Positions 10,904 through 48,561 of a stretch of DNA of 64,000 nt are shown one piece after another. The stretch is from Escherichia coli (GTDB lineage Bacteria > Pseudomonadota > Gammaproteobacteria > Enterobacterales > Enterobacteriaceae), in NCBI RefSeq assembly GCF_041886205.1, contig NZ_CP169029.1; one strand, given 5' to 3'. Position numbers and translations under genes: made by a program. Positions within the stretch are counted from its first letter, which is position 1. Every line of letters starts with the position of its first letter. The notes beneath the pieces are model-generated. The model searched no databases and was not told where the DNA came from. It saw nothing but the letters and a program-made list of their open reading frames with translations.

Positions 10904-11794
10904 TCAGGCTGCCAGATCATCGTTTCCGATGGAAGCATAATAAGCTTTTTCTGCTTCTGCCGGAGGAGTATGGCCCAGCCTTTCCAGCAATCGTCGATTG
11001 TTATACCAGTCCACCCACGTGAGTGTGGCCAGTTCCACTTCTGCACGGTTTTTCCAGCTCTTACGGTGTATTACCTCCGCTTTGTAAAGACCATTGATGC
11101 TCTCCGCCATCGCGTTGTCATACGAGTCGCCTGTACTTCCTGTTGATGCCAGTAATCCGGCTTCCTTAAGCCGCTGTGTGTAGGCCAGCGATACATACTG
11201 AGAACCTTTATCACTGTGATGGACCGTGCCGGACGGTCGACGGGCCCATAACGCCTGCTCCAGTGCATCCAGCACGAATGTCGTTTCCATGGACGATGAG
11301 ACCCGCCACCCCACGATGTATCCGGCAAACACATCAATGATGAACGCCACATAGACGAAGCCCCGCCATGTGCTGACGTAAGTAAAATCAGCCACCCACA
11401 GCTGGTCAGGTCGTTCTGCCACGAACTGACGGTTTACGCGGTCGCCTGCGGCAACGGCTTTCCGGCTGATGGTCGTACGGACCTTTTTACCCCGGAGAAC
11501 ACCGGCAAGTCCCATAACCGCCATGAGACGTGCCACAGTGCATCTGGCCACTCTGATACCTTCCCGTAACAACTGACGCCAGACTTTACGCACACCGTAT
11601 ACCTTGTGATTTTCATCGTATACGCGCTGTATCTCTTTCTTCAGCCAGTCATCGCGCTGCGCACGGGCACTGCGTTTATCCGGATGATGTCGCTGTTGCT
11701 GACAGTGGTAATACGTTGACGGGGCAATATGCAGTTCGCTGCATAGCGGTCCGACCCCGTACTGCTCACGCAGCTTATCCAGCAGTGGCATCAT
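10904..11794 (-). CDS. IS629 transposase OrfB (296 aa, DDE integrase-like)
   Basis: [20 protein letters not shown]...; overlaps orfA consistent with IS3-family programmed frameshift. Confidence 0.9.
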
Positions 11795-12117
11795 TTTTTC
11801 CAGAGGCGGTCGAACTCCGCCTTCGCAAAATAAGCGGAAGCCTGGCGAAGGATATCGTTACTGCGGCGCAGTTCACGATTTTCACGTTCCAGCTCTTTCA
11901 GACGCTGACGTTCAGCGGTGGTGAGCCCTCCATCACCGCCCCCGGTATCCCGCTCATGCTGGCGAACCCAGACACGCAGAGTCTCCGGCGTACAGCCAAT
12001 CTTTGGAGCAATGGAACAAATTGTCGCCCATTGTGAGTCATATTCGCTCTGACTTTCCAGAACCATACGGACTGCCCGTTGACGGACTTCGGGGGAAAAA
12101 CGAGTATTTTTAGTCAT
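11791..12117 (-). CDS. IS629 OrfA (108 aa, HTH)
   Basis: [57 protein letters not shown]... recalled as IS629 OrfA. Confidence 0.9.
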
Positions 12118-22985: not shown

Positions 22986-23567
22986 TTATGCAGCGAGATT
23001 TTTCGCTACGAATTCCCAGTTCACCAGCGCCCAGAAGTGCTCCAGATAGCCAGGACGTGCATTGCGATAGTCGATGTAATAAGCGTGTTCCCAGACATCA
23101 ACGGTCAGCAGCGGAGTCGCATCGGTGGTCAGCGGAGTACCCGCGTTAGAGGTTGAAACGATAGCCAGTTTGCCATCGCTGTTTTTCACCAGCCAGGTCC
23201 AGCCAGAACCAAAGTTTTTGATCGCTGCATCAGTAAACTGCGCTTTGAAATCGGCAAAGCTGCCAAAAGATACGGCGATAGCTTCAGCGACTTTTCCAGT
23301 CGGTTCGCCACCGGCGTTCGGTGCCAGGCAGTTCCAGTAGAAAGTATGGTTCCAGACCTGAGCTGCGTTGTTGAATACGCCACCTTCAGAGCTGCGAATA
23401 ATCTCTTCCAGTGATTTACCTTCAAACGCGGTACCTTTAATCAGGTTGTTCAGGTTAGTGACATAAGTCTGATGGTGCTTGCCGTAGTGATACTCGATGG
23501 TTTCCGCAGAAATGTGCGGTGCCAGAGCATCTTTAGCATATGGTAGTGCAGGTAATTCGAATGACAT
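22986..23567 (-). CDS. sodB: Iron superoxide dismutase (193 aa)
   Basis: [40 protein letters not shown]... canonical Fe-SOD. Confidence 0.95.
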
Positions 23568-23694
23568 TGCTACTCTCCTTTATTATTAATTTGCATACGT
23601 ACAATAGCCTTATTGTGCGTATGGATAGGGTAGCAAATTAAAAGGTGAGACAAAAGATGAACTTACCCTGTTGCCGTAACAACAGGGTAAAGTT

Positions 23695-24510
23695 TTAGCG
23701 AAGTGTTTTTGGGGTCATTACCCGACGAGCGCCAACATAGTGGCGCTGCCAGTAGTCTTCACTGAGAGAAGTGATTTGAATTTCCTGACCTGTGCGCGGT
23801 GACTGAATAAATTTGCCGTTGCCGACATACACGCCGACATGATCGGCTGTGCCGCGTCCCTGAGTACGGAAAAAGACCAGGTCGCCGTTTTTCAGTTCAC
23901 TACGTTCGATTGGCGCTGCATCACGCAGGTGATACATTTCATTCGCCGTACGCGGAATACGAATTTTCACCAAATCTTTATAAGCGTAATAAACCAGGCC
24001 GCTGCAATCAAAACCGGTACGCGGTGAGCTGCCACCCCAACGATATGGCTTACCAATTTGCTGCATCAGTTTATTCATTGCCACTTTCGTAGCTTTTTGC
24101 ACCTTCGCTTTGTGCGCGTCGGCAAGAGTTCCTGACGCGGCATTTTTGACTTTCACACAATGCGATTTATAGCCCTTACGTTTGGTACACTTTTCGGTAA
24201 AGCTGGCTGAGGCCGTTTTATTGACGGCGTGTTTGCTGCGAGTTTTGGCGTTTTTAGAAGCGGTAATGGAAGATTTTTTAACGGAAGAAGCGGTTTTGCT
24301 TTTGGTCGTACTTTTACTGGCGGCTTTTTTCGCTGTTTTCTGGGTCTTTTTGGTGGTTGCCGTGCTTTTCTTTTTATCTGCTTTTTTGGTGATATGAGTG
24401 GTAGCAGAACTCTCCCTGGCTTGCTTTGAAGCATGGGCCATAGGCGTTAAAGGCAGGGTGGTAAAAAGTAAAGCACAGAGCGTGATCGAAATACGGTTTA
24501 TCCGCGCCAC
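23695..24510 (-). CDS. mepH: NlpC/P60 peptidoglycan endopeptidase MepH (YdhO, 271 aa)
   Basis: Signal peptide, Lys/Ser/Thr/Ala-rich linker, C-terminal NlpC/P60 domain (FDCSGLVYYAY...). Confidence 0.9.
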   Translation of the reverse strand: MARINRISITLCALLFTTLPLTPMAHASKQARESSATTHITKKADKKKSTATTKKTQKTAKKAASKSTTKSKTASSVKKSSITASKNAKTRSKHAVNKTASASFTEKCTKRKGYKSHCVKVKNAASGTLADAHKAKVQKATKVAMNKLMQQIGKPYRWGGSSPRTGFDCSGLVYYAYKDLVKIRIPRTANEMYHLRDAAPIERSELKNGDLVFFRTQGRGTADHVGVYVGNGKFIQSPRTGQEIQITSLSEDYWQRHYVGARRVMTPKTLR

Positions 24511-24843
24511 TGAGCGTCCCTCTGTTAAGGCAGGTCTATCATGCCTGCGTCTGATTTACAAAACTTGATGATTCTAATGCATAGAAGAAGAGAAAGTTAA
24601 TAGCTTTTATTGTTAAAAAATACGTTTCGTTGGCGAGCGCAAAAAAATGCAGCAGTGAAAGCTAAAAATGGTTATAAATACGCCAGTTTGCCGGCATCAG
24701 AGAAGAAACGAATATTTGAAATGCAACAAATAGAGCAAAGGGATAAAATAGCAAAAGCGTGATGAAAATGTTATTTTCCGATGCCGCACTGACCCGCTAC
24801 AATGTCAGATTACTGCCGTAAAGAAGTTTGAGGAAGCAAGACA

Positions 24844-25191
24844 ATGAGCACCACTATCGAAAAAATCCAACGCCAGATTGCTGAAAACCCGATCCTGCTG
24901 TACATGAAAGGTTCACCGAAACTGCCGAGCTGCGGTTTCTCTGCCCAGGCAGTCCAGGCGCTTGCCGCATGTGGCGAACGTTTTGCCTATGTTGATATTC
25001 TGCAGAATCCGGACATTCGTGCGGAACTGCCGAAATATGCTAACTGGCCGACCTTCCCGCAACTGTGGGTTGACGGCGAGCTGGTAGGCGGTTGTGATAT
25101 CGTGATCGAAATGTATCAGCGTGGCGAATTGCAGCAGCTGATCAAAGAAACTGCCGCTAAATACAAGTCTGAAGAGCCGGACGCGGAATAA
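24844..25191 (+). CDS. grxD: Monothiol glutaredoxin Grx4 (115 aa)
   Basis: CGFS active site (PKLPSCGFSAQAVQAL). Confidence 0.9.
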   Translation: MSTTIEKIQRQIAENPILLYMKGSPKLPSCGFSAQAVQALAACGERFAYVDILQNPDIRAELPKYANWPTFPQLWVDGELVGGCDIVIEMYQRGELQQLIKETAAKYKSEEPDAE

Positions 25192-47679: not shown

Positions 47680-47737
47680 ATGAAGATTTTTTTGGAGAAT
47701 GTTTATCATTCTGATTGCTATTTCCTGCCGATAAGAG
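47680..47737 (+). pseudogene. ydiV: 5' remnant of ydiV (first 19 codons) truncated by IS1
   Basis: atgaagatttttttggagaatgtttatcattctgattgctatttcctgccgataagag = MKIFLENVYHSDCYFLPIR, abutting the IS1 left end at 47738. Confidence 0.7.
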
Positions 47738-47792
47738 GGTGATGCTGCCAACTTACTGATTTAGTGTATGATGGTGTTTTTGAGGTGCTCCA

Positions 47793-48068
47793 GTGGCTTC
47801 TGTTTCTATCAGCTGTCCCTCCTGTTCAGCTACTGACGGGGTGGTGCGTAACGGCAAAAGCACCGCCGGACATCAGCGCTATCTCTGCTCTCACTGCCGT
47901 AAAACATGGCAACTGCAGTTCACTTACACCGCTTCTCAACCCGGTACGCACCAGAAAATCATTGATATGGCCATGAATGGCGTTGGATGCCGGGCAACCG
48001 CCCGCATTATGGGCGTTGGCCTCAACACGATTTTCCGCCATTTAAAAAACTCAGGCCGCAGTCGGTAA
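47793..48068 (+). CDS. insA: IS1 InsA (91 aa)
   Basis: Identical protein to the other IS1 copy. Confidence 0.95.
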
Positions 48069-48490
48069 CCTCGCGCATACAGCCGGGCAGTGACGTCATC
48101 GTCTGCGCGGAAATGGACGAACAGTGGGGCTATGTCGGGGCTAAATCGCGCCAGCGCTGGCTGTTTTACGCGTATGACAGGCTCCGGAAGACGGTTGTTG
48201 CGCACGTATTCGGTGAACGCACTATGGCGACGCTGGGGCGTCTTATGAGCCTGCTGTCACCCTTTGACGTGGTGATATGGATGACGGATGGCTGGCCGCT
48301 GTATGAATCCCGCCTGAAGGGAAAGCTGCACGTAATCAGCAAGCGATATACGCAGCGAATTGAGCGGCATAACCTGAATCTGAGACAGCACCTGGCACGG
48401 CTGGGACGGAAGTCGCTGTCGTTCTCAAAATCGGTGGAGCTGCATGACAAAGTCATCGGGCATTATCTGAACATAAAACACTATCAATAA
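47987..48490 (+). CDS. insB: IS1 InsB reading frame
   Basis: Identical 167-aa ORF; slippery ttaaaaaactc upstream overlap with insA. Confidence 0.9.
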
Positions 48491-48505
48491 GTTGGAGTCA
48501 TTACC

Positions 48506-48561
48506 CCGCTTCCTGTGCCGACAGGACCGGCACTCGTCCATTAATACGAGGTGGTTTTACA
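48506..48561 (-). pseudogene. ydiF: 5' remnant of ydiF (about 18 codons) truncated by IS1
   Basis: Reverse complement atgaaacctgtaaaaccacctcgtattaatggacgagtgccggtcctgtcggcacaggaagcgg = MKPVKPPRINGRVPVLSAQEA, ending at the IS1 right end. Confidence 0.7.

Follow-up and report, generated by a model that had tools for sequence, protein, structure and literature searches.

In a 64,000-nucleotide (nt) stretch of an Escherichia coli genome (RefSeq assembly GCF_041886205.1, contig NZ_CP169029.1; hereafter the window), the gene mepH (ydhO) encodes the peptidoglycan DD-endopeptidase MepH, whose mature form is predicted to start with a free, disordered and lysine-rich tail. Taking the identification of this tail jointly with the role that we infer for it, electrostatic retention of a soluble hydrolase in the envelope, we consider the combined reading moderately probable. 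E. coli has three redundantly essential 'space-maker' endopeptidases, among them MepH, whose abundance is under tight control; the literature searched gives no account of how soluble MepH reaches its substrate or its protease. A model that had seen only the DNA and a list of its open reading frames (ORFs) had described a basic, Lys/Ser/Thr/Ala-rich low-complexity linker between the signal peptide and the NlpC/P60 domain of MepH. The bias, its position between these two elements and the name of the gene were all borne out by our analysis. The word 'linker', in contrast, is a misnomer, because nothing remains N-terminal to the segment in mature MepH after cleavage at A27|S28, which makes it a free N-terminal tail. 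The range given in this original prediction (24150-24440, residues 24-121) was also too wide, since the bias ends at about residue 104 and the range takes in the end of the signal peptide and a conserved cysteine hairpin at residues 105-122, which is not of low complexity.

The mepH coding sequence, supported by the ORF, Pfam and RefSeq annotation, occupies 23695..24510 on the minus strand (GTG start, 271 amino acids (aa) plus stop), and its translation contains exactly the peptide quoted in the original prediction. It is 100% identical to RefSeq genes named 'peptidoglycan DD-endopeptidase MepH' in many complete E. coli genomes, and the Pfam family PF00877 (NLPC_P60) matches residues 153-263 with 125.8 bits against a cutoff of 23. 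At the N terminus, codons 1-27 (MARINRISITLCALLFTTLPLTPMAHA; 24430..24510, minus strand) form a signal peptide with basic n-, hydrophobic h- and AxA c-regions, the last reading A-H-A before the cleavage site. This element is unusually well conserved, measuring 27 aa in 109 of 112 homologues, and Voedts et al. likewise took residues 28-271 as mature MepH for purification (bioRxiv 10.1101/2021.02.12.430937).

Composition, sequence entropy, predicted structure and the conservation of length and charge together delimit the tail to codons 28-104 (24199..24429, minus strand). Lys (26%), Ser (19.5%), Thr (18%) and Ala (17%) make up 80.5% of these residues; 22 Lys and Arg face 2 Asp and Glu, giving a net charge of +20, only 5 of the 77 residues are hydrophobic, and Pro and Gly are absent. 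The Shannon entropy of the segment is 2.91 bits, compared with 4.14 bits for residues 123-271. Among the 52 window ORFs of at least 150 aa, MepH has the lowest entropy as well as the highest K/S/T/A fraction in any 77-aa stretch (0.82; runner-up 0.47), a bias far beyond the local background. The sense DNA of the tail consists of 42% A and 14% T, and Lys is encoded by AAA 17 times and by AAG three times.

We aligned 121 MepH sequences and used a subset of 41 diverse homologues to locate conserved positions. The tail opens with a conserved motif (codons 28-48, S-x-Q-A-R...H39..K42....K47-K48; 24367..24429, minus strand), in which S28 is invariant and Q30, H39, K42, K47 and K48 are at least 90% conserved, and which is a possible short linear docking motif. 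Past this motif, up to about residue 104, the tail is variable and of low complexity. It is followed by a Cys-x9-Cys β-hairpin (codons 105-122, TEKCTKRKGYKSHCVKVK, TEKC-x9-C; 24145..24198, minus strand), supported by predicted strands and by C108 and C118, which are invariant in the 41 homologues; variants of the segment are present in more distant homologues. Residues 105-122 are probably a periplasmic disulfide loop linking the tail to the catalytic domain, and the Cys-x9-Cys segment is not mentioned in the literature searched.

Disorder prediction had been proposed as a check on the segment and agreed with it. In an AlphaFold2 model built on the 41-sequence alignment, which is of low overall confidence (mean predicted local distance difference test score (pLDDT) 56.6), residues 24-102 score below 50 and carry no DSSP secondary structure. 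Past the tail, the model places strands at 104-109 and 117-122, a helix at 129-150 and an α+β domain, with structural elements spanning residues 104-265. Composition and predicted structure thus both characterize the tail as intrinsically disordered, as far as prediction goes. No solved structure of MepH or of its tail was found, and related structures in the PDB start at about residue 120, save for weak low-complexity matches. The NlpC/P60 catalytic domain itself (residues 153-263, preceded by helix 129-150; 23722..24054, minus strand) is supported by both the Pfam match and the model.

Across 91 full-length homologues, tail length is 78.3 ± 5.9 aa (range 60-96) and net charge +19.6 ± 1.6 (range 15-23), corresponding to 0.25 ± 0.02 charges per residue with 1-4 acidic residues; the catalytic part is fixed at 119 aa in 108 of 112 homologues. 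In the 79 homologues from outside Escherichia, identity to the window protein is 35% in the tail versus 91% in the NlpC/P60 domain. Ratios of nonsynonymous to synonymous substitution (dN/dS) against Escherichia albertii are 0.13-0.20 for the tail and 0.01-0.02 for the domain, so that constraint on the tail, as estimated from this comparison, is relaxed yet purifying. Charge and length are therefore held while the sequence drifts, which argues for weak purifying selection on composition, charge and length rather than on sequence. Functional disordered regions usually show this pattern, which suggests that the polycationic tail has a function. Distant single-domain relatives (43-68% identity), retrieved from a search of 1.84 billion representative sequences, likewise carry tails of 90-180 aa with net charges of +18 to +33; these polycationic relatives include proteins of Dickeya zeae and Affinibrenneria salicis, and the tail of entry P0222 is made of AAKK(P/S/T) repeats.

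A tail that acts as a neutral spacer, with its composition kept by mutational or codon bias and its length drifting freely, would also turn over quickly in sequence, and the 35% identity is in line with this. So is the polymorphism within E. coli, where amino-acid-changing codons outnumber synonymous-only ones by 9 to 3 in the tail, as opposed to 1 to 18 in the domain, and so is the existence of both common and rare length alleles. However, mature MepH offers no N-terminal partner from which anything could be spaced, dN/dS lies well under 1, and comparable tails persist in other Enterobacterales families. Moreover, charge varies with a standard deviation of only 1.6, and length with one of 5.9, across genera whose tails are largely unalignable. 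Exporting some 20 positive charges against the membrane potential is costly. Since the charge distribution is narrow and such export comes at a price, we regard a neutral spacer as unlikely.

We instead favor the view that selection would act on bulk properties of the tail, that is, a length of about 70-90 aa, roughly +0.25 charges per residue and few acidic or hydrophobic residues, in addition to the short N-terminal motif, but not on the rest of the sequence. Sec export followed by cleavage at A27|S28 would free the lysine-rich, disordered tail of about 77 residues (+20), which would precede the small disulfide-type hairpin and then the catalytic domain in soluble, periplasmic MepH. There, the tail would electrostatically retain or concentrate the hydrolase on anionic peptidoglycan or the envelope, in place of the lipid anchor that its paralogue MepS possesses. 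Strong basicity is common among wall hydrolases, and peptidoglycan is a polyanion. Because the envelope is likewise polyanionic, and because MepH lacks both a lipid anchor such as that of MepS and a LysM domain such as that of MepM, electrostatic retention appears the most economical role for the tail. As MepH is exported to the periplasm, any polyanionic partner would therefore be peptidoglycan or envelope lipids.

Several points weigh against electrostatic retention. The charge is not unique to the tail, as residues 105-271 are also basic (+17). Purified MepH 28-271 is active, and no tail-less construct was compared with it (bioRxiv 10.1101/2021.02.12.430937). Rare E. coli alleles are short of 10-32 tail residues, so that either the full length is not strictly required or these database entries are erroneous. 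The disorder call draws on a low-confidence model built from just 41 sequences, in which low pLDDT is a mere proxy for disorder. Finally, the tail is not discussed in the literature on MepH, MepS, NlpI and Prc, and a search for lysine-rich periplasmic disordered regions returned nothing relevant. A tail that keeps charge and length during sequence drift across Enterobacterales families poses a well-defined question for experiments based on tail deletion or charge swaps.

In a second possible role, compatible with retention, the tail would be a regulatory handle for proteolysis, offering a docking surface for NlpI or an unstructured entry site for Prc, with the motif at residues 28-48 as the contact. 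MepH is degraded by Prc in a partly NlpI-dependent manner (PMC8996183; PMC11789061), and the disordered N terminus of MepS becomes folded when it binds NlpI (PMC11211486); the conserved S-x-Q-A-R...H..K...KKK motif sits right at the start of the MepH tail. The parallel with MepS is limited, however. The two paralogous NlpC/P60 endopeptidases share a disordered segment before helix α-1 and are both Prc/NlpI substrates (PMC11211486), but the MepS segment is only about 36 aa long, lipid-anchored and not polycationic, and it contacts NlpI through hydrophobic residues in an extension of helix α-1 (PMC11211486). The MepH tail measures 77 aa, carries +20, has no lipid anchor and is nearly devoid of hydrophobic residues. 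Judged from the sequences, helix α-1 of MepS seems equivalent to helix 129-150 of MepH rather than to its tail. In addition, much of MepH proteolysis is NlpI-independent (PMC11789061), and a handle would leave the conserved charge of about +20 unexplained. We hold a proteolytic handle to be improbable and continue to prefer electrostatic retention as the role of the tail.

The original prediction had further stated that such a segment can vary in length between strains through slippage and had suggested an alignment across strains, which indeed revealed such variation. Full-length mepH matches in E. coli measure either 816 or 828 nt. The long allele carries an additional CCAGAAAGCCAG (QKAS) after codon 56, adjoining CCAGAAAACAG; alignments place the corresponding 12-nt deletion junction of the window allele (GAC|CCAGAAAAC) at 24335..24346, minus strand. 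The 12-nt unit is flanked by a 7-nt direct repeat, CCAGAAA, with copies 12 nt apart, which extends to 9 nt (CCAGAAAAC) in strain 042. To count alleles, we used junction-specific megablast queries in which a 28-nt exact word is retained by one allele only. Across about 5,425 complete E. coli genomes, 1,848 carried the long and 3,546 the short allele, and roughly 30 of the 5,425 were captured by neither query. This 271/275-aa dimorphism matters to anyone comparing MepH between strains; otherwise, the segment is unremarkable as a low-complexity region of a known gene.

In E. albertii, the long form is present but lacks the repeat (AGCAATAAAGCCAG|CCAGAAAAC), and the Citrobacter protein is of equal length at the indel point; the long form is therefore ancestral. 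From these alignments, the K-12-type short allele of the window is a derived deletion between repeats that arose by substitution within E. coli. A comparison of 14 E. coli alleles places the short form on at least three haplotypes, which differ by 10-15 single-nucleotide polymorphisms (SNPs), and the window allele differs from long alleles by as little as 0 SNPs (UTAK-22) or 1 SNP (MS 69-1). Of 24 informative SNPs, 14 are incompatible with the indel by the four-gamete test. Weighing against recurrent deletion, 81 of 276 SNP-SNP pairs are themselves incompatible, so that the short allele could have spread by recombination instead. Its several haplotype backgrounds thus fit either recurrent deletion or intragenic recombination.

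Two 9-nt direct repeats, ACCGCTTCT, lie 30 nt apart in the tail (24286-24294 and 24256-24264, minus strand), and in the DNA of a rare 10-aa deletion allele (P0008) the 30-nt deletion falls exactly between the two copies. Overall, rare E. coli entries have lost 9-32 tail residues, in frame. In other tails, tandem arrays do occur: Leclercia has a 15-nt unit in 4.3 copies, Salmonella has 9-12-nt units, and the longest variant (P0060, 290 aa) has arrays of 27-nt and 9-nt units in its tail. Tandem Repeats Finder, in contrast, detected no tandem repeat in the window allele (score 30) or in the short and long alleles (score 24), and a search of the window for families of direct repeats found none in the tail. 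The longest exact direct repeat in the tail of the window allele is 9 nt, a length reached by 747 of 1,000 codon shuffles.

We also considered and rejected a tandem-repeat contingency locus. The length polymorphism within the segment and the direct repeats flanking the indel end points would suit such a locus, but head-to-tail nucleotide repeats are missing and a 9-nt repeat is expected from composition. On this evidence, the length events are microhomology-mediated deletions in low-complexity DNA and not expansions or contractions of a repeat array. In mechanistic terms, A-rich, T-poor DNA rich in short direct repeats would give rise to length alleles through in-frame deletions by replication slippage or microhomology. 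Hence, the expected variation between strains is real (12-nt indel, 30-nt deletion) and tail lengths are not identical among relatives. The idea of length change by slippage in the original prediction is upheld in substance, with microhomology in low-complexity DNA as the substrate in place of a repeat array, since the window allele has no tandem repeat.

Listeria p60 (Iap) offers a precedent for such variability, as it has a low-complexity Thr-Asn segment of strain-variable length N-terminal to its NlpC/P60 domain; the NCBIfam model for Listeria p60 aligns to MepH residues 22-264, far below its cutoff. In p60, the segment is a true tandem array of dinucleotide codons located between folded domains, whereas the MepH segment is a terminal tail and contains no tandem array in the window allele. 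In composition, the tail resembles the Lys/Ala-rich tails of histone-H1-like and AlgP-like proteins (KKxAA repeats; compare AAKK(P/S/T) in P0222), which share its K/A/S/T content and high positive charge. These proteins are cytoplasmic and bind DNA, however, whereas MepH is periplasmic. Neither the mepH gene nor the existence of a biased region at the N terminus of its product is new. Our contribution is small: exact tail boundaries, the conserved cysteine hairpin, the conservation of charge and length, and the 271/275-aa dimorphism with its mechanism and polarity.

The biased DNA also opens other reading frames over the tail, which the original prediction had dismissed as antisense artefacts. 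Two ORFs are antisense (24182-24397, 71 aa, and 24229-24429, 66 aa; plus strand), but a third, K/R/P-rich ORF of 93 aa (24153..24434, minus strand) lies on the same strand as mepH in the +1 frame, so that 'artefact' holds for all three and 'antisense' for only two of them. A Pfam search with the three ORFs gave no match. The in-register antisense frame is open for exactly 72 codons, because Leu codons are missing from the tail and TCA is used for Ser only twice, at its two ends (S28 and S101). The tail DNA is A-rich and T-poor also in E. albertii, Citrobacter koseri, Salmonella, Kosakonia, Leclercia and the 290-aa variant; across seven taxa, alternative open stretches over the tail are 36 to 236 codons long and fall in different frames. 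With neither a conserved frame and boundaries nor a family match, the overlapping ORFs are by-products of composition.

Four database entries (P0013, P0022, P0061 and P0010) follow the +1 frame for part of the tail. No stop interrupts this frame anywhere in the tail, and its product is basic too; after a compensated frameshift, the tail would thus remain polycationic. In the DNA of P0013 (GCA_900448615.1, an NCTC assembly, presumably PacBio-based), one nucleotide is lost from an A6 run and one is gained in an A4 run 176 nt downstream (equivalent to window positions 24251-24387), for which sequencing error is the likelier cause.

That one of these frames, antisense or +1, is expressed as a hidden second gene is very improbable. 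Besides the three ORFs of 66-93 aa and the database proteins in the +1 frame, such a gene could explain why the synonymous divergence (dS) of the tail, at 0.23, is below the 0.77-0.91 of the domain. Yet Pfam matches none of the ORFs, the open frames and their lengths differ from genus to genus, the antisense frame is open simply for lack of Leu codons and of internal TCA Ser codons, and the +1-frame readers are singletons with paired homopolymer frameshifts. The gradient in dS, moreover, begins in the signal peptide, outside these ORFs. Against E. albertii, mepH dS climbs from 0 in the signal peptide through 0.23 in the tail and about 0.45 in the hairpin and helix to 0.77-0.91 in the catalytic domain, and synonymous polymorphism within E. 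coli follows the same gradient. Candidate explanations are a constraint at the RNA level near the 5' end, codon or composition bias, and recombination history.

The 5' untranslated region and first codons of mepH (24441-24580, minus strand) are invariant, wobble positions included, in Escherichia, Citrobacter, Salmonella, Kosakonia and Leclercia, especially at TCGATCACGCTCTGTGCTTT over codons 8-14 (24469-24488) and at CAGTGGCGCG, which holds the GTG start (24508-24510). A small hairpin upstream of the gene (GCAGG...CCTGC) shows one compensatory change. RNAalifold pairs the Shine-Dalgarno and start region with codons 8-13, and every pair is invariant. RNA structure as the cause of the invariant synonymous sites found no support: covariation is absent, the single-sequence fold is no better than those of shuffled sequences (z = +0.38), and Rfam has no match at the 5' region.

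In the same region, the first 16 nt of the small RNA RybB are complementary to the Shine-Dalgarno/GUG region of mepH (24497-24524, minus strand), with energies of -16.4 to -17.3 kcal/mol in all seven taxa. This energy is equalled by 1 of 52 further translation-initiation regions of the window and by 9 of 1,000 shuffles, and a literature search returned no report of mepH as a RybB target. The σE-dependent RybB may repress mepH translation through the conserved Shine-Dalgarno/GUG site, which we put forward as a lead only. A bolder proposal would join this repression to a charge-tuned tether to peptidoglycan or NlpI-Prc and would make the QKAS deletion, found in about 65% of E. coli, adaptive or phenotypically relevant for retention or turnover; we regard this combination as doubtful.

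The mepH gene is flanked by sodB (22986..23567, minus strand) and grxD (24844..25191, plus strand), with lhr nearby, which is the orthologous position, and C169 (DCSG), H224 (HVG) and Q236 are invariant in the 41 homologues; we take these to be the catalytic residues by analogy with C68, H119 and H131 of MepS. Domain, invariant residues, position and annotation all assign MepH to NlpC/P60 (MEROPS C40) as an orthologue. DD-endopeptidase activity of MepH on 4-3 cross-links has been reported (bioRxiv 10.1101/2021.02.12.430937; PMC8996183). The protein does not differ from K-12 MepH (YdhO), sharing its 271 aa, the gene order sodB-mepH-grxD-lhr and the mature start at residue 28; the window thus holds the short K-12-type allele and not the 275-aa allele of about one third of strains.

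At a coverage of at least 80%, mepH is present in 5,423 of 5,426 complete E. coli genomes. In E. coli TUM2805 (NZ_CP128950.1, 4.09 Mb), it is reduced to its last 116 nt, adjoining grxD, and one complete genome is without any match. The gene is near-universal, yet dispensable in at least these two genomes. Upstream of mepH, a promoter-like site (TTAACT, 18 nt, TAGAAT; 24571..24600, minus strand) has both hexamers in blocks conserved across genera, and a terminator-like hairpin lies just 3' of the stop codon, as read from the sequence (23662..23691, minus strand). The gene is also named among NsrR targets (PMC12249550).

Elsewhere in the window, the lhr ORF is 5'-truncated to 1378 aa, with lhr homology ending at 29508 and yniB homology starting at 29628 (region 29378-29700). 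Lhr of K-12 has 1538 aa, and lhr and yniB lie about 78 kb apart in the K-12 order. The 119 nt between the two homologies have no megablast match and contain the hairpin GCGCCGC-TGAAAA-GCGGCGC. The junction is spanned nowhere in 5,426 complete E. coli genomes, and an exact-match scan of 100,044 species-representative genomes did not find a 44-mer across it. The start of a segment thus abuts its end, a geometry compatible with the junction of a tandem duplication, with a translocation or with a mis-join.

Past yniB follow yniA, pfkB, a DUF481 gene, an intact ShET2/ankyrin ORF, an insertion sequence (IS) of the IS1 type, a thrS-sized ORF and a Phe leader, and further on pheS- and pheT-sized ORFs, STnc540, btuCED-sized ORFs, RprA and rydB; where Pfam and Rfam gave no match, we assigned names from ORF size and the K-12 gene order. 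The intact ORF of 546 aa (34040-35680, minus strand) combines a ShET2-enterotoxin N-terminal domain with ankyrin repeats and adjoins IS1; K-12 presumably has only the arpB pseudogene at this position. Two IS1 copies (35748-36524 and 47731-48506), 99.7% identical, inverted and about 11 kb apart, flank the region from the thrS-sized ORF to the btuCED-sized ORFs, and an IS3-family transposase ORF (10904-11794) carries an ALIL frameshift pseudoknot (11720-11836). Together, the IS load and the rearrangement look like those of Shigella or enteroinvasive E. coli.

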